From positions 440,676 through 480,675 of the forward strand of contig NZ_BDQK01000001.1 in the NCBI RefSeq assembly GCF_003864295.1: DNA of 40,000 nucleotides, written 5' to 3'. Positions 2,170 to 29,735 of this stretch are shown here, in pieces. The translations under genes and the position numbers were made by a program. The stretch comes from Aphanothece sacrum FPU1 (lineage in GTDB: Bacteria; Cyanobacteriota; Cyanobacteriia; Cyanobacteriales; Microcystaceae). Within the stretch, counting starts at the first letter, position 1; each line of letters begins with the position of its first letter. Below the pieces are notes generated by a model that worked only from the letters and a program-made list of their open reading frames with translations, made no database searches and had not been told where the DNA came from.

Positions 2170-2198
2170 GGAGACAAAATGCAAATTTTCTGTAGTGG

Positions 2199-2240
2199 CC
2201 GGTTTTCGTAGGGGCGGGTTTTCGTAGGGGCGGGTTTTTT
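2199..2240. repeat. Two direct copies of GGTTTTCGTAGGGGC ending in GGGCGGGTTTTTT
   Basis: Read directly. The GGGGCGGGTTT core is the reverse complement of the AAACCCGCCCC core in the downstream 41-bp units. Confidence 0.9.
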
Positions 2241-2249
2241 ACAGGAGTT

Positions 2250-2440
2250 ATGATGCCCACAAAAAAGTTGAATAAACCCGCCCCTCTTTTATGATGCCCA
2301 CAAAAAAGTTGAATAAACCCGCCCCTCTTTTATGATGCCCACAAAAAAATTGAATAAACCCGCCCGTATTTTATGATACCCACAAAAAAATTGAATAAAC
2401 CCGCCCCCTATGACATGATACTCACAAAAAATAAGGATTA
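2250..2440. repeat. 41-bp tandem repeat, 4 full units plus one degenerate unit, abutting the start codon at 2444
   Basis: Units start at 2250, 2291, 2332, 2373 and 2415 (ATGATGCCCACAAAAAAGTTGAATAAACCCGCCCCTCTTTT). Units 1 and 2 are identical and later units diverge progressively. Confidence 0.95.
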
Positions 2441-2443
2441 ACA

Positions 2444-4387
2444 ATGAAAAAATATCTGACTTTTTTAGCATTATTTATCTTAGTCACTTTCGGAACTACC
2501 TTTATTGGATGTTCTTATAAAGATAATTTAATCACCGCACAAGAAATTAATTATTTTCGTCAATTTTCTGCTCTTAACTTACCTCAAATAGAACAACAAT
2601 TTCGCAATCAATGGACACCAAAATTAGAACAAGGATTTCAAGAAAGAGCAAATACAATTATTAACTTTTATGCCAATAGAGATACTTATGGGAATGGTTA
2701 TGGAGAGAATGAAAAACGTTCTTATCCCCGCGCTATGTTTGATTTTTTAGCAGGTAATCAAGATAAAGCGATCGCCTTTTTACAAAAAGAAGATCCCGAA
2801 GCAGATAAACATCAACATACAGATGGCATTGACTATTATTATTGTTTCACATTAAAAGGACAAATTCGTAAATATTTTCTCTATGGAAAATATCTTGATC
2901 CTGCTTATAAACAAAGGATGTTTGAAGGAGCAAAAAAATGGACTCAAGAAGACCCCTTAACTCGTCCCCATCCCGTTTATGGGTTAGGCAATGGTGAGGG
3001 GAGAGACTGGGATATTAGTCGTAGAGGAAGATGGGTAGATGGACGAAATACAGACAATTTAAGGGCAATGAGAGAGACATCTGTTTACTTGATGGCCGAA
3101 GAAACAGGTAATGAGAAAACACGCCAAATTTATAAACAAAAAATTCAAAGATATGTCTGGGCATTATATAATATTGGTATGGGAGAATGGGACTCAGAAG
3201 TATATCATGGACATACTTTTGCTTCCTATTTAAACCTCTATGATTTTGCTAAAGATCCCGAAGTCAAACAATTAGCAAAAGCAGCTTTAGATTGGTTTTC
3301 TACTGCGGCTGCTATGAAATATTATAGAGGAGGTTGGGGTGGCCCAGTAAAACGAGATTACGGCACAGGAAATGCACCTTTAAATTCATCTTCTGCACGA
3401 ACTTTTTGGTTATATTTTGACGATACACCTTTATCTAATACTGATCCTGAAGAAGATACTTTATTCTTTATTACCAGTGCCTATCGTCCCCCCTTAGCAG
3501 TTATTAATTTAGCCCATAAAAACTTTAATAAACCAGTTGAAGTTTTCAGCAGTAAACCCTTATATGAAAATTGGAAACCAGGAAATGATCAACAACCTGG
3601 TTACTGGGAAACACAATTTTTTGGACATACTTATCAGATGGGAAGTTTAGCAGGAACATTCCCAGATGGAGATGTTGCCCCCTTTAAATTAATGGCTTAT
3701 AATACAGATAGAGGTGTTGATTATTTTGCTGTTAATACAGGGGGAAATATTGTTAGTCCAGGAAAAAAACCAGGAGATGAAATAGGACAATATCAAAATC
3801 TCTTGATTTGGTTAACTTTTCCTTCTACTCCTTCCTTTAATTTTCAGATTCCTGACACTGCTAAATTAGAAATTGAACATGATATTTGGTTTATTCATTA
3901 TGAGAAAACTTGGTTAGCTATTCATCCCATTAATCTCAAAAAATATGAAAAAATTACTGTTAATGATGAGAGAATCAATAAAGCTTACCCCAAAGAAAGA
4001 TTTTTACACGCTGAAACAACAGGGAATAATTATTCCGGTTTTGCCTTAGAAGTAGGAGAAAAAGAGTCTCATGGTAGTTATGAAAAATTTAAACAAAAAG
4101 TTAAACAAAAAAGTTCTCTAAATTTACAACAATTAGACAGAGGAGAAGTTACTTTTAATGGCACAACCGGAAATGTGTTACAATTAACCTATAATTGGCA
4201 AAATCTTTTACCTAAAATCCTTCGTAACGGGAAAGTACATGATTGGTTAAAAAATTTATCTCTTTATAACAGTCAAACTAAAGATAAATCACCTATATAT
4301 TTAGGATATAAAGAAGGTAAATTAAAAATAAAAGGAGGAGGGGATGAATTTATGAATCAAGTTAATAAAATAAATCTAAATAACTAA
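2444..4387 (+). CDS. Large predicted lipoprotein of unknown function
   Basis: 647-aa ORF. The signal peptide ends in a lipobox-like FIGC (MKKYLTFLALFILVTFGTTFIGCS). An AAGGA motif lies 6 nt upstream of the ATG. No family recognised by eye. Confidence 0.75.
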   Translation: MKKYLTFLALFILVTFGTTFIGCSYKDNLITAQEINYFRQFSALNLPQIEQQFRNQWTPKLEQGFQERANTIINFYANRDTYGNGYGENEKRSYPRAMFDFLAGNQDKAIAFLQKEDPEADKHQHTDGIDYYYCFTLKGQIRKYFLYGKYLDPAYKQRMFEGAKKWTQEDPLTRPHPVYGLGNGEGRDWDISRRGRWVDGRNTDNLRAMRETSVYLMAEETGNEKTRQIYKQKIQRYVWALYNIGMGEWDSEVYHGHTFASYLNLYDFAKDPEVKQLAKAALDWFSTAAAMKYYRGGWGGPVKRDYGTGNAPLNSSSARTFWLYFDDTPLSNTDPEEDTLFFITSAYRPPLAVINLAHKNFNKPVEVFSSKPLYENWKPGNDQQPGYWETQFFGHTYQMGSLAGTFPDGDVAPFKLMAYNTDRGVDYFAVNTGGNIVSPGKKPGDEIGQYQNLLIWLTFPSTPSFNFQIPDTAKLEIEHDIWFIHYEKTWLAIHPINLKKYEKITVNDERINKAYPKERFLHAETTGNNYSGFALEVGEKESHGSYEKFKQKVKQKSSLNLQQLDRGEVTFNGTTGNVLQLTYNWQNLLPKILRNGKVHDWLKNLSLYNSQTKDKSPIYLGYKEGKLKIKGGGDEFMNQVNKINLNN

Positions 4388-15606: not shown

Positions 15607-16338
15607 TCAAGGTAGGTTTTGTATCTTTTGTTCCAATTGTTCAATTCGGTCTAATAAGGTACGAATGATTTGGGCCTCCACATCCGGTAATTTGCCGTGT
15701 TCTAAGGGGCAACCGCGACCACTACGGGAAATAATACGACCGGGTACTCCTACGACGGTGCAATCACTGGGAACACTGCGCAAAACGATTGATCCTGCAC
15801 CAATACGAACATGATTGCCAATTTCAATATTGCCTAAGACTTTGGCCCCGGCCCCGACAATAACATGATCTCCTAGAGTGGGATGGCGTTTACCGAGTTC
15901 TTTTCCGGTGCCACCAAGGGTCACATTTTGATAAATTAAACAATAATCTCCCAAAATAGCCGTTTCACCAATGACTACTCCCATACCGTGATCGATAAAC
16001 ACCCCTTGACCAATGGTGGCCCCAGGATGAATTTCAATTCCGGTGATAAATCGTCCTAAATGGGAGAAAAAGCGAGGAATAAAGGGTATTTGCTGTTTCC
16101 ATAGCCAATGGGATAAGCGATGGAGAGTTAAGGCGTGTAATCCTGGATAAAAGCATAATACTTCTAGCCAGTTACGAGCGGCCGGATCTCGTTGAAAAAT
16201 AACTTGAAAGTCTTTCAGGAGGGTTTGCACGGGAGAGACACGAGAACATGGTGGAATCTCCAAAGAACAAGTCGAGGAGTCGTTATGACCCCTTTGATAC
16301 CCTAAACGACCTTCTCTGACGGGAATGGATCCAAACAT
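15607..16338 (-). CDS. cysE: Serine O-acetyltransferase (nif-associated, nifP-type)
   Basis: [12 protein letters not shown] plus left-handed beta-helix hexapeptide repeats ([28 protein letters not shown]...[19 protein letters not shown]). The ~40-aa N-terminal extension makes the true start uncertain. Confidence 0.88.
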
Positions 16339-16850: not shown

Positions 16851-16912
16851 TTGGGTTTGGGGTGATGGGGTTTGGGGTGATGGGTGATGGGGTGATGGGT
16901 GATGGGTGATGA
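16851..16912. repeat. G-rich heptamer/octamer array (GGTGATG/GGGTGATG, about 8 units)
   Basis: ttgggtttggggtgatggggtttggggtgatgggtgatggggtgatgggtgatgggtgatg. This is the reverse complement of the CCCATCA family at 28236-28333. Confidence 0.95.
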
Positions 16913-21881: not shown

Positions 21882-22979
<1,098 letters not shown>

Positions 22980-24717: not shown

Positions 24718-24808
24718 GACAAGGGAACAGGGGACAAGTTTCCCCCCTCCCCCTCTTATTGCCCAAACGATGCCTTACTATCCTTGATCGAAGAACGGAG
24801 TACCACCA

Positions 24809-26344: not shown

Positions 26345-26367
26345 TCAAAGGGAGACAAGGAAGAACA

Positions 26368-26394
26368 GGGGGAAAAGGAATTCTTTTCCTCCCC
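26368..26394 (+). terminator. Hairpin after nifK (GGGGGAAAAG-gaatt-CTTTTCCtCCCC)
   Basis: 7-bp core stem extendable with a bulge, 24 nt after the nifK stop, followed by CTCTCCTTTT. A weak terminator or processing candidate. Confidence 0.4.
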
Positions 26395-26407
26395 CCCCTC
26401 TCCTTTT

Positions 26408-26736: not shown

Positions 26737-28149
26737 ATGAAATTAACAAAAGGCAAAATCAACGAACTGCTAACGCAACCCGGTTGTGAGCATAATCATA
26801 AAAAAGAGGGTGAGGGTAAAAATAAGTCTTGTACCCAACAAGCTCAACCCGGTTCTGCTCAAGGAGGCTGCGCTTTTGATGGTGCATCTATCGCCCTTGT
26901 TCCTATCACCGATGCAGCCCATTTAGTTCATGGTTCTATTGCTTGTTCTGGTAATACTTGGGGCAGTCGTGGCAGTCTGTCAAGCGGCCCTAATACTTAT
27001 AAAATGGGTTTTACAACTGATTTATCAGAAAATGATGTTATTTTTGGTGGTGAGAAAAAACTTTATCAAGCAATTGGTCAACTCATTACACGTTATCATC
27101 CAGCCGCAGTTTTTGTCTATTCAACTTGTGTTACTGCCCTCATTGGGGATGATTTAGATGCAGTCTGTAAAGCTGCTAGTAATAAGTTTGAAACTCCTAT
27201 TGTTCCGGTTCATGCACCAGGATTTGTGGGTAGCAAAAATCTGGGCAACCGTTTAGGAGGAGAAGCTTTACTTGACTATGTAGTCGGAACTAGAGAACCG
27301 GAATATACCACTCCTTATGATATTAATCTCATTGGAGAATATAATATCGCGGGTGAAATGTGGGGTGTTATTCCCTTATTAGAAAAAGCGGGATTTCGGG
27401 TTCTTTCTAAGATTACAGGTGATGCTCGTTATAATGAGGTTTGTTATGCTCATCGGGCTAAACTTAATGTTATGATTTGCTCGAAAGCTTTAATTAATAT
27501 GGCTACTGCCATGAAGGAACGTTACGATATTCCTTTCATAGAAGAATCCTTCTATGGTGTAGCTGATATGAACCGTTGTTTACGCAATATTGCCGCTTTC
27601 TTCGGTGATGCTGCTTTACAAGAACGGGTAGAAAATTTAATTGAAGAACAAACCCTTAAGTTAGACATCGCTTTGGCCCCTTATCGGCAAAGGTTAGAGG
27701 GTAAACGCATGGTCTTATATACAGGAGGTGTAAAAAGTTGGTCAATTGTATCAGCCGCTCAAGATTTAGGTATTGAAGTCGTCGCAACTAGCACTAAAAA
27801 AAGCACAGAAGAAGACAAAGCGCGTATTAAACAGTTGCTTGGTCAAGATGGCATTATGCTAGAAAAAGGCAGCCCCGAAGAACTATTACGAGTCATTGAA
27901 AAAACAAAGGCTGATTTATTAGTTGCAGGGGGACGTAATCAATATACTGCCCTGAAAGCTAGAATTCCCTTTTTAGATGTTAACCAAGAACGTCATCATC
28001 CTTATGCGGGTTATGTCGGTATGGTGGAAATGGCTAGAGAATTAGATGAGGCAGTACATAGTCCTATTTGGCGACAAGTCCGTCAAGCTGCCCCTTGGGA
28101 AATTTGGCAACAAGAACATGAAAGTTTGTTGCATTTGGAAGCAGAGTAG
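26737..28149 (+). CDS. nifE: NifE FeMo-cofactor scaffold subunit
   Basis: 470 aa; GCAFDGASIALVPITDAAHLVHGSIACSG and NifD-like architecture. Confidence 0.95.
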   Translation: MKLTKGKINELLTQPGCEHNHKKEGEGKNKSCTQQAQPGSAQGGCAFDGASIALVPITDAAHLVHGSIACSGNTWGSRGSLSSGPNTYKMGFTTDLSENDVIFGGEKKLYQAIGQLITRYHPAAVFVYSTCVTALIGDDLDAVCKAASNKFETPIVPVHAPGFVGSKNLGNRLGGEALLDYVVGTREPEYTTPYDINLIGEYNIAGEMWGVIPLLEKAGFRVLSKITGDARYNEVCYAHRAKLNVMICSKALINMATAMKERYDIPFIEESFYGVADMNRCLRNIAAFFGDAALQERVENLIEEQTLKLDIALAPYRQRLEGKRMVLYTGGVKSWSIVSAAQDLGIEVVATSTKKSTEEDKARIKQLLGQDGIMLEKGSPEELLRVIEKTKADLLVAGGRNQYTALKARIPFLDVNQERHHPYAGYVGMVEMARELDEAVHSPIWRQVRQAAPWEIWQQEHESLLHLEAE

Positions 28150-28333
28150 GGAGAGCAGGGAGCAGGGAGCAGGGAGCAGGGAGCAGGGAGCAGGGGAGCA
28201 GGGGGAGTAGGGGAGAAGAAAAATTGTCTTATTGTCCCATCATCCCATCATCCCATCACCCCATCACCCGATTACCCCATCACCCCATCACCCCATCACC
28301 CCATCATCCCATCATCCCATCATCCCATTACCC
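28149..28333. repeat. (GGGAGCA)x6-plus G-tract array followed by (CCCATCA/CCCCATCA)x~13 C-tract array
   Basis: The G-tract array spans 28149-28216 and starts at the last base of the nifE stop (TAG 28147-28149). The C-tract array spans 28236-28333 and ends 20 nt before the nifN ATG. Confidence 0.95.
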
Positions 28334-28352
28334 AACAGAAGGAGGAACGGAA

Positions 28353-29735
28353 ATGACCACTATTTTAAGTCCCAATAAGTCTCTATCAGTCAACCCCTTA
28401 AAAATGAGTCAACCTTTAGGCGCGGCCTTAGCGTTCTTAGGGTTAAAAGGAATGATGCCTTTATTTCATGGGGCCCAAGGTTGTACAGCCTTTGCTAAAG
28501 TAGTCTTAGTTCGTCATTTCCGTGAATCAATTCCCTTGTCTACCACTGCTATGACGGAAGTAAGTACCATTTTAGGGGGTGAAGACCATGTTGAGCAAGC
28601 TATCTTAACAATTGTTGACAAATATAAACCTCAAGTTATTGGTTTGTTAACTACAGGGTTAACGGAAACGAGAGGGGATGATATGGGAGGTATTCTCCAG
28701 GTAATTCGAGAACGTAACCCCAAATTAAACAATTTACCCATTATTTTCGTTTCTACTCCTGATTATAAAGGATCGTTACAAGATGGGTATACAGCCGCCA
28801 TAGAAAGCATTGTTTCTACGGACTATGGGTCTTTCACCCCTGACCAACCGTTGATGGCTTCTGTGGGGATGCAGCCTCAAGTGACCATTCTGTGTAGTTC
28901 CTCTTTATCTCCTGGAGATGTGGAAGAACTCAAAGCGATCGTGGAAGGATTTGGCTTAACTCCTATCATGATACCCGATCTGTCTCGTTCTTTGGATGGT
29001 CACTTAGAAGATAATCCTCATACGGTAACAACAGGGGGAACCACATTAACCCAACTGCAACAATTAAACCGTTCTTGCTTTACTTTAGCGGTTGGGGAAA
29101 GTATGCGCAAAGCAGCCCAAATTTTAGAACAACGGTTTGGGACTAAATATGAGGTTTTCTCCCGTTTAGCGGGGTTAGATGGAGTAGATGCCTTTTTATG
29201 GCGACTCTCTCAGATTATTACTTCCCGTTGTGATCATCATTTCCCCATTATCCCCAATATTCCGGCCTATCTGCAACGTCAACGCCGTCAGCTACAAGAT
29301 ACTATCCTCGATACTCACTTCTATTTTGGGGGCAAAAAGGTAGTTTTAGCTTTAGAACCGGATTTACTGCACCAAACCGCCTGGTTATTAAATTCTATGG
29401 GGGCTAAAATCCAAGGGGCTGTTACAACGACAAAATCCCCCTTATTAGAAGATTTACCCATAGAAACGGTAATAATCGGGGATTTAGAAGATTTAGAAGA
29501 TTTGGCTGTCGGCTGTGACCTGGTGATTACCAATTCTCATGGCGGCCCCATTGCCAAACGACTCCATGCCCCATTGTATCGTATGGGATATCCCGTATTT
29601 GATCAATTAGGCAATGGTCAACGATGTTTAGTAGGTTATCGAGGAACGATGCAATTTCTTTTTGATGTGGGTAATATTTTACTCGAAGAAGAAGTTAAAC
29701 ATAGTCCTTGTTCATCTACCTATGTTAATAGTTAA
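28353..29735 (+). CDS. nifN: NifN FeMo-cofactor scaffold subunit
   Basis: MTTILSPNKSLSVNPLKMSQPLGAALAFLGLKGMMPLFHGAQGCTAF with GGAGGA 7 nt upstream of ATG 28353. The ORF-track start (TTG 28224) merely translates the CCCATCA array. Confidence 0.93.
   Translation: MTTILSPNKSLSVNPLKMSQPLGAALAFLGLKGMMPLFHGAQGCTAFAKVVLVRHFRESIPLSTTAMTEVSTILGGEDHVEQAILTIVDKYKPQVIGLLTTGLTETRGDDMGGILQVIRERNPKLNNLPIIFVSTPDYKGSLQDGYTAAIESIVSTDYGSFTPDQPLMASVGMQPQVTILCSSSLSPGDVEELKAIVEGFGLTPIMIPDLSRSLDGHLEDNPHTVTTGGTTLTQLQQLNRSCFTLAVGESMRKAAQILEQRFGTKYEVFSRLAGLDGVDAFLWRLSQIITSRCDHHFPIIPNIPAYLQRQRRQLQDTILDTHFYFGGKKVVLALEPDLLHQTAWLLNSMGAKIQGAVTTTKSPLLEDLPIETVIIGDLEDLEDLAVGCDLVITNSHGGPIAKRLHAPLYRMGYPVFDQLGNGQRCLVGYRGTMQFLFDVGNILLEEEVKHSPCSSTYVNS

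Follow-up and report, generated by a model that had tools for sequence, protein, structure and literature searches.

G-rich heptamer repeats of Xanthomonas and Nostoc are known to fold into G-quadruplexes (G4) in vitro (Rehm 2015, PMC4692102). The unit is GGGAATC in the former and GGGGA(C/T)T in Nostoc PCC 7120; the repeats are strongly intergenic, they lie 0-50 bp past a stop, on the coding strand and in some cases overlapping that stop, or ahead of a start codon on the non-coding strand, they vary in copy number, and in Xanthomonas they occur as inverted pairs (PMC4692102). Roles have been suggested for other families of short repeats: the STRR hairpins between hupS and hupL have been proposed to act in transcript stability or translational coupling (summarised in PMC2670836), and the TAACTGA direct repeats of Beggiatoaceae, cyanobacteria and Bacteroidetes, which are often found just ahead of start codons and differ from strain to strain by steps of 7 nt, have been proposed to involve a translational regulator (MacGregor 2015, PMC4679880). 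In the 23S rRNA IVS of Coxiella burnetii, complementary arms form a stem around the small four-helix-bundle gene S23p (PF05635); such cassettes carry tandem heptamers upstream of the ORF in a copy number that varies between strains, and RNase III cuts the stem (PMC4990558). The nif cluster of Anabaena, finally, is represented by one transcript that is shaped by processing and stem-loops (PMC4284476), and in the nif1 system of Anabaena variabilis the stem-loops are tied to the stability of mRNA segments, transcription coming largely from the nifB promoter (Thiel & Pratte 2014, PMC4284476).

The window analysed here, a 40,000-nucleotide stretch of the Aphanothece sacrum FPU1 genome, carries a G-rich array, an A/T-rich linker and a C-rich array between nifE and nifN (Table 1). 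Direct reading verifies a claim of the first-pass annotation of this DNA that the G-rich array begins on the last base of the nifE stop codon (TAG, 28147-28149), a stop position common to the relatives. The run of G3+ tracts is likewise present, although it amounts to nine tracts by script count and not the 'about ten' described; the array contains 40 G among its 65 nt, the loops between its tracts measure 6, 4, 4, 4, 4, 4, 4 and 4 nt, and the final three tracts are of four, five and four G. The linker had been put at 19 nt and is three nucleotides longer, and the C-rich array ends 19 nt and not 20 nt ahead of the nifN ATG. Its estimated ~13 C3-4 tracts are exactly 13, separated by loops of 4-5 nt and with a single G in 98 nt, and it is the longest G3/C3 array of the whole genome.

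Table 1. Coordinates of the nifE-nifN junction and of the related array upstream of nifB, numbered within the window.
Feature	Coordinates	Strand	Description
G-rich array upstream of nifB, GGGTGAT/GGGGTGAT	16853..16911	+	Solitary, in the divergent cysE-nifB region; sequence, TRF
nifE	26737..28149	+	NCBIfam TIGR01283, 692.5 bits
G-rich array	28149..28213	+	(GGGAGCA)x6, then GGGGAGCA, GGGGGAGTA, GGGG; TRF period 7, 7.1 copies, score 93
A/T-rich linker AGAAGAAAAATTGTCTTATTGT	28214..28235	+	22 nt, A9 T8 G4 C1; loop between both arrays
C-rich array	28236..28333	+	CCCATCA and CCCCATCA units, about 12 copies; TRF period 8, 12.2 copies, score 140
nifN Shine-Dalgarno AGGAGG	28340..28345	+	7 nt upstream of ATG, outside the arrays; from sequence
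nifN	28353..29735	+	NCBIfam TIGR01285, 649.6 bits

The identities of cysE and nifB are also backed by NCBIfam, and the NifN proteins of the relatives align from residue 1 at ATG 28353. An open reading frame runs through the C-rich array from TTG 28224, in frame with nifN, and is open by composition alone because the repeat unit contains no stop triplet; we rejected it, since NifN homology begins at ATG 28353 in all relatives, and the position of the AGGAGG motif relative to that ATG disfavours TTG 28224 as a start for NifN as well. No terminator-like site (a GC-rich stem followed by a U tract) was found in 28150-28352 and no U run follows the C-rich array; promoter-like sites were sought in the nifE-nifN spacer and none was found, and Rfam 15 gave zero matches at gathering score in the whole window.

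The junction arrays resemble the repeats studied by Rehm in their 7-nt period, in having one G3-4 tract per unit, in lying between genes and in being G4-competent in sequence, and they match the placement rule, the G strand being the coding strand after the stop and the non-coding strand before the start. They differ in their units (GGGAGCA; CCCATCA/CCCCATCA), in that the two arms come from different families, and in their host, a unicellular relative of Crocosphaera/Cyanothece. Their quadruplex potential is real, as mean G4Hunter scores are 1.66 for the G-rich array, -1.64 for the C-rich array and 1.81 for the array upstream of nifB. Both junction arrays contain at least four consecutive units with one G3+/C3+ tract each, the pattern of the canonical G3+N1-7 x4 rule; the sense strand carries two canonical motifs and the template strand three. 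The C-rich array also shows the i-motif tract pattern (at least four C3+ tracts), as a pattern of sequence only. The genome, at 37% GC, holds 79 non-overlapping canonical G4 motifs on both strands, or 0.70 per 40 kb; seven of the 79 fall in the window, every one of them within the three arrays, which exceeds chance. The first-pass annotation was right about the G4 and i-motif potential of the sequence, while its wider interpretation is supported only in part.

That annotation also reported an inverted copy of the C-rich family upstream of nifB. Between cysE and nifB, about 350 nt upstream of the latter's ATG, there is indeed a reverse-complement array with nine G tracts counted from 16846, and it is the reverse complement of the CCCATCAC family, to which the C-rich array belongs. 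It is not a unique partner, however: the CCATCA/TGATGG family has 17 arrays in the genome (0.15 expected per 40 kb), and the array upstream of nifB is therefore a further member of a dispersed family. The GAGCAGG family has four arrays in the genome.

The nifE-nifN arrays are a local instance of a genome-wide class of 7-base tandem repeats that is known from cyanobacteria, and not a device specific to nifEN. In this genome there are 394 non-overlapping arrays of period 7 or 8, of which 363 (92%) are intergenic, the intergenic share of the DNA being 18.5% as estimated from crude ORF calls. The junction arrays consist of head-to-tail 7-8-nt units in at least three copies and belong to a class that is mostly non-coding, as is typical of STRR; they are members of a described repeat class. 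This class is of the STRR or long-simple-sequence-repeat type, to which the G4-forming repeats GGGNATC and GGGGAYT, described earlier, also belong. Some 90% of the arrays in the genome are without G tracts, yet they share the same placement and a similar copy number, so that the class can be explained without G4 formation; the earlier idea of a G4 device particular to nifE-nifN is unsupported on the same count, most of the 394 arrays being placed likewise without being G4-capable. A preference for four units was considered as a G4 signature and rejected, the median being 4.4 copies in G3 arrays and 4.9 in non-G4 arrays, which shows that any copy-number preference is not specific to G4. STRR-type repeats are widely used for cyanobacterial fingerprinting, and to our knowledge their origin has never been explained. 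The classical STRR units reportedly described by Mazel et al. in 1990, CCCCAGT, TTGGTCA and CAACAGT, differ from the units at nifE-nifN.

Within this class the nif cluster is a hot spot, with 20 arrays in 19 kb compared to 1.67 expected (roughly 12-fold). An array is present in eight of 13 nif spacers versus 9.6% of 1165 comparable spacers elsewhere (p = 8e-6), and an array-loop-array module is found in nearly every nif spacer. TAACTGA arrays, of which there are 40 in the genome, occupy the nifH-nifD and nifK-nifE spacers; like those at nifE-nifN they are intergenic heptamer arrays, with a different unit that is not G4-capable. The enrichment in the nif cluster could point to a function that we under-rate here. 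The arrays are also polar: adjacent non-redundant pairs run G-then-C in 22 cases genome-wide and C-then-G in two. Between co-directional genes, arrays nearer the stop have G in excess of C in 84 cases and C in excess of G in 28, and those nearer the start have C in excess in 57 and G in excess in 33 (stop/start rule, p = 4e-8); for G3/C3 arrays alone this strand rule is not significant (12:10 and 4:7).

The nifE-nifN junction has a comparable layout in related cyanobacteria. Tight coupling of nifE with nifN, which the first-pass annotation took as normal, is not the rule in cyanobacteria, the spacer being at least 10 nt long in 50 of the 77 loci measured. Overlapping or fused nifEN genes are found in many cyanobacteria. 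Comparing spacer length and content in relatives had been suggested as a check on the insert, and in the closest clade the spacers are 54-273 nt long and filled with G-then-C arrays, so the insert is not unexpected. The relatives compared belong to other genera, this genome being the sole member of its genus in the set. In their spacers a G-rich array at the stop is followed by an AT linker and then by a C-rich array ahead of the ATG, built from different unit pairs (GAGCAGG/CACCCTA, GGAGTTC/CCCCGTCA, GGGACTG/TACCAAT, GGCAGAGGA/CCCCATT), and units and copy number turn over fast between related species. Of 44 species, 28 have the G-then-C order and two the reverse. In the Crocosphaera/Cyanothece clade a G-then-C spacer is what this junction normally carries, which removes most of the surprise; a literature search found no paper that deals with repeats between nifE and nifN of Cyanothece or Crocosphaera.

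The two arms of this spacer fit each other poorly. The G arm belongs to the GGGAGCAG family and the C arm to the CCATCACC family, and their units match at four of seven positions, identifying them as different repeat families. The predicted minimum free energy of the spacer is about -55 kcal/mol (-54.7) compared with a mean of -65.7 for arm-wise shuffles (z = +2.2), 297 of 300 such shuffles being as stable as the native spacer; dinucleotide shuffles likewise reveal no excess structure (z = +1.3), and a perfect inverted repeat would give -170. As an inverted-array hairpin, with reverse-complementary arms that pair better than composition-matched controls, the nifE-nifN module fails, whereas the neighbouring nif spacers hold four AT-rich modules that do form true hairpins (z = -3.4 to -7.3). 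The same contrast applies to the hupS-hupL STRR, which, like this spacer, places hairpin-capable 7-bp tandem units between subunit genes of a metalloenzyme operon: the STRR and the AT-rich nif modules form real hairpins, and the nifE-nifN arms pair worse than chance. When arms were swapped among 44 species, the own pair was better overall (permutation p < 1e-4), an advantage driven by a few true palindromes (L026, L043 and L078). Seven foreign 3' halves pair better with the G arm of this spacer than its own C arm does, and the own-arm value here is therefore a matter of arm length and composition.

A further connection is with genes of the PF05635 (23S-rRNA-IVS-protein) family, and here lies the likeness to the IVS of Coxiella. 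Each of the genome's three PF05635 genes lies between inverted arrays, and the unit families of these cassettes include both families of the nifE-nifN spacer. One gene (G000:C13:575082-575393) is flanked by GGGGAGCAG/CTGCTCCCC arms of the G-array unit family, and a frameshifted one (C13:480038-480250) by GTGATGG/CCCATCACC arms of the C-array unit family; the nifE-nifN arms share with these gene-bearing cassettes their G-then-C polarity as well. Of the 31 PF05635 genes examined in 22 related genomes, arrays border 27 on both sides and four on one side, none of the 31 being free of them, and the flanking units are usually reverse complements at six or more of seven positions. In a Microcoleaceae MAG a PF05635 homologue lies directly upstream of nifE. 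The nifE-nifN module differs from IVS cassettes in that it lies outside rRNA, has non-complementary arms, and contains no PF05635 ORF: its loop is only 22 nt, and tblastn with 26 PF05635 proteins was empty across the window. Cleavage by RNase III is a feature of the IVS. One relative (G005) has many CCCATCAC arrays and no PF05635 gene, which indicates that the gene is not required for the arrays to persist.

These associations suggest, tentatively, an origin for the whole class that we nonetheless regard as unlikely. Heptamer arrays (STRR, TAACTGA, GGGGAYT etc.) may have their place as arms in a polar cassette system, IVS-like in kind and linked to the PF05635 family, and not be plain slippage products. 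Gene-bearing cassettes would define unit families that spread as gene-less pairs, densely so in the nif operon; the nifE-nifN arrays would be half-cassettes of two families, and the polarity would reflect the making or the expression of cassettes. We found no paper in a literature search that ties PF05635 to cyanobacterial heptamer arrays. If the link is causal, it would provide an experimental handle on the origin of STRR-type repeats, a 35-year-old question.

We lean towards the view that the nifE-nifN arrays are a local gene-less pair of the genome-wide heptamer/octamer class, with mismatched arms and a modest consequence, and we propose that their G4 capacity is presumably a by-product of the unit sequence and not a selected function. 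In this genome and its relatives arrays of this class come as polar pairs, with the G-rich arm 5' and the C-rich arm 3' on whichever strand is read; the common ancestor of the clade probably already carried a G-then-C pair at this junction, and the spacer would have grown in place by slippage of 7-8-nt units. Presumably it is transcribed within the nif polycistron, where the G arm may pair loosely with the C arm, the GGG:CCC triplets being split by internal loops, or may alternatively fold into up to two G4s; the surplus of the C arm would be left single-stranded. The most likely effect is a modest one, in which translation of nifN would be uncoupled from termination at nifE and would start at its own AGGAGG. 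In addition, the spacer may form a structured stretch that is susceptible to RNA processing. In this it would recall the stem-loops of Anabaena variabilis nif1, which also lie between cistrons of a nif cluster; those are conserved and sit at mapped processing sites (e.g. upstream of nifH), whereas the structure at nifE-nifN is a predicted one and its sequence is not conserved.

A second and somewhat unlikely possibility is that the arrays are neutral or selfish filler, consisting of slippage products or the remnants of mobile cassettes or MITEs, with no effect on nifEN expression; such filler would be tolerated because nifN has its own ribosome-binding site. The rapid turnover of units and copy number among related species speaks in favor of this, as do the mismatched and poorly pairing arms, the dispersal of both families (17 and four loci) and the presence of the C-array family inside a MITE-like element as well, the spacer's lack of an Rfam family and of promoter-like or terminator-like sites, and the spacer-free function of overlapping or fused nifEN elsewhere. 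It does not readily account for a G-then-C layout that is kept in 28 of 44 species despite replacement of the sequence, nor for the array excess in the nif cluster, and a predicted structure of about -55 kcal/mol together with a 98-nt leader that is nearly free of G is unlikely to leave translation and RNA decay untouched.

A dedicated G4 or i-motif regulator is improbable. On that view an RNA G4 in the G-rich array, or a DNA G4 on the template strand under the C-rich array, would make RNA polymerase or ribosomes pause and would set the NifE:NifN ratio. Such a view would draw on the G4Hunter scores and on the nine and 13 tracts with mostly 4-5-nt loops, on the concentration of seven of the genome's 79 canonical motifs in these arrays, and on the G4 formed in vitro by analogous repeats (PMC4692102). 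The arms also pair worse than composition predicts, so that the G arm is not locked in a good duplex, and the C arm is longer than the G arm, which leaves G tracts of the template strand unpartnered. Under the gquad model of ViennaRNA, the G-rich array alone forms two predicted G4s (-17.5 kcal/mol), the C-rich array alone is predicted to be wholly unstructured (0.0 kcal/mol), and the complement of the C-rich array forms three predicted G4s. The same model applied to the full spacer nevertheless favors G:C pairing (-56.1 kcal/mol) over two G4s (-17.5 kcal/mol). In relatives, the orthologous spacers retain the layout with units incapable of forming G4 (GAATGTA/ATTCTAC, GAAGTTT, GGAGTTC), the array class as a whole is placed and sized in the same way largely without G tracts, and the many cyanobacteria with overlapping or fused nifEN argue that control of this kind is not generally needed.

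Least probable of all is a putative protein or ribosome binding site, whether the heptamers would bind S1, Csp, a CsrA-like or the PF05635 protein, or GGGAG would act as a decoy Shine-Dalgarno with the C-rich array as a standby site: the C-rich array is predicted to be unstructured and ends 6 nt ahead of the Shine-Dalgarno, GGAG/GGGAG occurs in the G units, PF05635 genes are each matched with their own arm unit, and factor binding was suggested for TAACTGA repeats ahead of start codons (MacGregor 2015, PMC4679880), but the diversity of units within the genome and at the same junction across species speaks against a single sequence-specific binder, and one relative has arrays without a PF05635 gene.

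What remains of most interest is the roughly 12-fold hot spot in the nif cluster, the G-then-C polarity of array pairs, and the placement of PF05635 genes within matched inverted arrays. In nif-cluster engineering, one could take out these spacers or try them as candidate modulators of inter-cistron expression.

The strand on which these structures fold best can also be compared. Adjacent arrays had appeared to form sense-specific RNA hairpins (p = 6e-4), a result that was inflated by ten near-identical pairs from one locus (G000:C6:91.8-93.0 kb) and that we withdrew, the counts being 9 versus 9 (p = 0.87) after removal of duplicates. At nifE-nifN the antisense RNA of the spacer folds better than the sense RNA (-68.8 versus -54.8), and antisense is the more stable at this junction in 29 of 44 species.

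The nifE-nifN spacer lies in a cyanobacterial nif cluster, every gene of which was confirmed with NCBIfam equivalog models, and holds two repeat runs: a G-rich array opens on the G of the nifE TAG, and a C-rich array stops 19 nt short of the nifN ATG. The first-pass annotation had described these arrays and an inverted copy near nifB, and sequence, TRF and tract counts agree with it bar small counting differences. The G-quadruplex (G4) and i-motif potential that it noted is likewise real at the sequence level. Counting both strands, 79 canonical, non-overlapping G4 motifs occur in the genome (4.49 Mb, 20 contigs, 37% GC; window at C1:440676-480675), a density of 0.70 per 40 kb, versus seven in the window, all within the G array, the C array and the array upstream of nifB, whose G4Hunter means are 1.66, -1.64 and 1.81 respectively. 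In the ViennaRNA G-quadruplex model the G array alone forms two G4s (-17.5 kcal/mol, versus -2.6 without G4) and the C array's complement three; no structure at all is predicted for the C array (0.0 kcal/mol), and in the full spacer G:C pairing is predicted to exceed two G4s in stability.

Arrays, PF05635 genes and associated features (plain numbers, window positions; C, contigs of A. sacrum FPU1; L, fetched loci)
Feature	Location	Strand	Details
cysE (nifP-like)	15607-16338	minus	NCBIfam
nifB, fdxN, nifS, nifU, nifH, nifD, nifK, in that order		plus	NCBIfam
nifH longest ORF	21900-22979		TTG start at 21900
nifE	26737-28149	plus	NCBIfam; stop TAG 28147-28149
nifN	28353-29735	plus	NCBIfam
G-rich array	28149-28213		nine G3-5 tracts, mainly (GGGAGCA)n
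A/T linker			22 nt, between G array and C array
C-rich array	28236-28333		thirteen C3-4 tracts; units CCCATCA/CCCCATCA; one G in 98 nt
nifN Shine-Dalgarno AGGAGG	28340-28345		outside C array
GGGTGAT/GGGGTGAT array	16853-16911		~350 nt upstream of nifB
Non-tandem hairpins	24718-24808; 26345-26405		GACAAGGGAACAGGGGACAAG...CCCCCCTCCCCC; AAAGGGAGACAAGG...CCTCCCCCCCCTCTCC
41-nt-period tandem repeat	2186-2431		4.5 copies, 93-95% match
PF05635 gene	C13:575082-575393		arms GGGGAGCAG-type and CTGCTCCCC-type
Its cassette	L101:1293-2271 (C13:574874-575852)		gene between 9-mer and 18-mer arrays, GGGGAGCAGAGGTGGCAG-type arm versus TCCTCTGCC/CTGCTCCCC
PF05635 gene	C13:871988-872299		arms (ATGAATT)x6 and (TTCATAA)x34
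Its cassette	L102:1432-2077 (C13:871919-872564)		intact gene; (ATGAATT)x5.9 and perfect (TTCATAA)x34.4
PF05635 gene, frameshifted	C13:480038-480250		arms GTGATGG-type and CCCATCACC
Its cassette	L103:1334-1847 (C13:479871-480384)		broken homologue between the same arms
PF05635 homologue near nifE	L045:3549-4006	minus	homologue 3641-3922; nifE ATG at 4004
(TTAGGGG)n arrays	C13:419273-419301; C13:745144-745164; C1:534671-534694; C6:5675-5715; C16:216158-216193
MITE-like element	L003:1451-1620 (C3:124429-124598); C7:112957-113076; C14:145868-146131; C14:23375-23502
Higher-order repeat	C6:91793-93022		~10 consecutive blocks of ~108 nt, each of ATGAATT/TAAATTA heptamer arrays

A hairpin at nifE-nifN was considered and rejected: the arm units agree at just 4 of 7 positions, and the minimum free energy of -54.7 kcal/mol is less favourable than that of dinucleotide shuffles (z = +1.3) and of arm-wise shuffles (mean -65.7; z = +2.2), 297 of 300 of the latter being as stable; were the G arm faced by its perfect inverted repeat, the value would be -170 kcal/mol. 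By folding energy, the AT-rich modules of the nif operon are real hairpins (z = -3.4 to -7.3 against half-wise shuffles). At nifE-nifN the predicted pairing would amount to GGG:CCC triplets arranged as a loose ladder. Antisense RNA is predicted to fold better there than sense RNA (-68.8 versus -54.8), as it is in 29 of 44 species; an apparent sense-specific pairing genome-wide proved an artefact of redundant pairs, with 9 versus 9 (p = 0.87) once duplicates were removed. We note non-tandem hairpins in the nifD-nifK spacer and at the start of the nifK-nifE spacer, G-rich then C-rich, with the polarity of the array pairs.

Arrays of this kind are not special to the nifE-nifN junction. Some 25 others of period 7 are detected in the window by TRF, and the genome holds 394 non-overlapping arrays of period 7 or 8, with ATGAATT/TTCATAA (118 arrays), AAATTAT (42) and TAACTGA (40) the commonest units and GGG or CCC present in only 39; by crude ORF-based gene calls, 363 of the 394 are intergenic, versus an intergenic share of 18.5% of the genome. 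The array upstream of nifB is indeed the reverse complement of the C-array family, and belongs to a dispersed CCATCA/TGATGG family (17 arrays; GAGCAGG has 4). The nif cluster is a hot spot, with 20 arrays in 19 kb versus 1.67 expected and arrays in 8 of 13 of its 60-400 nt spacers versus 112 of 1165 elsewhere (p = 8e-6), and the pattern of array, short loop and roughly complementary array recurs in almost every nif spacer.

These pairs are polar. Among non-redundant adjacent pairs genome-wide, 22 run G-rich then C-rich and two the reverse, both being junctions between successive modules, and this polarity is unchanged on strand flip. Because of it, arrays between co-directional genes follow a gene-relative rule (p = 4e-8): the sense strand has G>C in 84 and C>G in 28 of those nearer the stop, and C>G in 57 and G>C in 33 nearer the start. 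Restricted to G3/C3 arrays, the rule does not reach significance genome-wide (12:10 and 4:7).

The expectation that nifE and nifN are tightly coupled fails in this clade. In a set of 80 NifE loci drawn from species-representative genomes, the best matches (88% identity) lie in the Crocosphaera/Cyanothece group, including Epithemia spheroid bodies and UCYN-A. We measured nifE stop to nifN start in 77, finding ATGA-type overlap or direct abutment in 18, apparent fusion in six and a spacer of at least 10 nt in 50; spacers span 54-273 nt in the closest clade and 203 nt in A. sacrum. In these spacers the layout is common and the sequence is not: a heptamer array rich in purine or G starts on the stop or no more than 3 nt from it and leads into an AT linker, and a C-rich array then ends just before the ATG. 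Units include GAGCAGG/CACCCTA (SU3, CCY0110), GGAGTTC/CCCCGTCA (C. watsonii), GAATGTA/ATTCTAC (BG0011), GGGACTG/TACCAAT (Phormidium, Floridaenema), GGCAGAGGA/CCCCATT (Limnospira) and GGGGGATGA/CTCCCTCAT (Nostoc). Across 44 species, 28 spacers have G>C in the 5' half with C>G in the 3' half, and only two the opposite. Four related genomes share a GAGCAGG-type G arm in differing copy number and differ in their C arms, as if units had been expanded and replaced in place.

Inverted arrays also enclose all three PF05635 genes of the genome (23S_rRNA_IVP family, S23p/Avd-like four-helix-bundle proteins). Among the arm families of these cassettes are the commonest array family of the genome and both families of the nifE-nifN spacer, and the spacer is thus a mismatched pair, with the G arm of the family at C13:575082-575393 and the C arm of that at C13:480038-480250. 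Among 31 PF05635 genes, from 22 of 31 genomes searched (A. sacrum and 30 relatives), arrays of period 5-10 lie on both flanks in 27, on one in four and on neither in none; the two flanks are usually reverse complements at 6 or more of 7 positions, and the unit is particular to each gene; the GGGGATT family of Nostoc and TAACTGA-type units are among them. The link does not always hold: one relative has many CCCATCAC arrays with the PF05635 gene absent. Remnants of the gene were not found in the gene-less modules here. In Coxiella, an S23p ORF, an RNase III-cleaved stem and variable heptamer repeats make up the IVS (PMC4990558), and in Pleurocapsa cmr3 and cmr2 are separated by a PF05635 gene (PMC3936711); none of the literature searched links PF05635 genes to cyanobacterial heptamer arrays.

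Among the cassettes, the G-rich arm and first ~27 codons of that in L101 form three tandem repeats of 155-nt period (2.7 copies, 90% match). The frame in L103 stops after 86 aa, with the conserved ...TWIEFAVKCNY segment going on in another frame, the alternatives being a frameshifted pseudogene and a slippage site. A Microcoleaceae MAG (L045) has one homologue directly upstream of nifE. Flanked by short heptamer arrays, it is 60% identical to a relative's protein; no intact ORF of at least 60 aa is listed at its position, and it may be decayed.

The nifE-nifN arrays are real, conspicuous and, judged by sequence, G4-competent, and are an addition to a known repeat class rather than a nifEN-specific device. 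Rehm et al. (2015) described G-rich heptamers, GGGAATC and GGGGA(C/T)T, in Xanthomonas and Nostoc PCC 7120. Those repeats are intergenic and, on the coding strand, overlap stop codons or come after them; they occur in pairs in Xanthomonas and fold into G4 in vitro (PMC4692102). Their gene-relative geometry is that of the arrays here. None of the literature searched concerns the nifE-nifN arrays themselves. We lean slightly towards a joint reading in which a gene-less, mismatched polar pair expanded in place and is transcribed within the nif polycistron, where it would fold as a loose G:C ladder or, transiently, as a G4, ahead of a long leader free of G, with nifN initiating independently from a Shine-Dalgarno sequence of its own. 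In Anabaena variabilis the nif cluster is largely transcribed as one unit from the nifB promoter, and processing and stem-loops shape the transcript (PMC4284476). MacGregor (2015) reports TAACTGA arrays with 7-nt step changes in cyanobacteria including Cyanothece, and cites an earlier proposal that polymerase slippage favours heptamers (PMC4679880). A role in transcript stability or translational coupling has been suggested for the STRR hairpins between hupS and hupL (PMC2670836). That the arrays are purely neutral filler seems unlikely, though it deserves some weight. A dedicated G4 switch we regard as improbable, and arrays that bind a protein or ribosome as more improbable still.

Several minor observations concern the genome and the window. 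Eight telomere-like (TTAGGGG)n arrays occur in the genome, several abutting a start or stop codon directly, and two are paired with a CCCCATCA array as mismatched G-then-C pairs like that of nifE-nifN. A MITE-like element of about 100-170 nt, with terminal inverted repeats AAGCTAAGACGCATTTAAA... and ...TTTAGATGCGTAACAGCTT (13 paired copies, 38 left-end matches), encloses an array of heptamers or octamers, the unit varying by copy (CCATCACC x2-5, GCAAGGGA x10), and several G3/C3 arrays lie inside it in either orientation. Redundancy among the higher-order repeat blocks on C6 distorted one statistic. The NifH model aligns only from residue 65 of the longest nifH ORF; the true start is probably ~190 nt downstream, which would make the nifU-nifH spacer ~400 nt, not 204. 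The 41-nt-period repeat contains palindrome arms GGGGCGGG/CCCGCCCC, and a repeat of 16-nt period with that motif lies before it.
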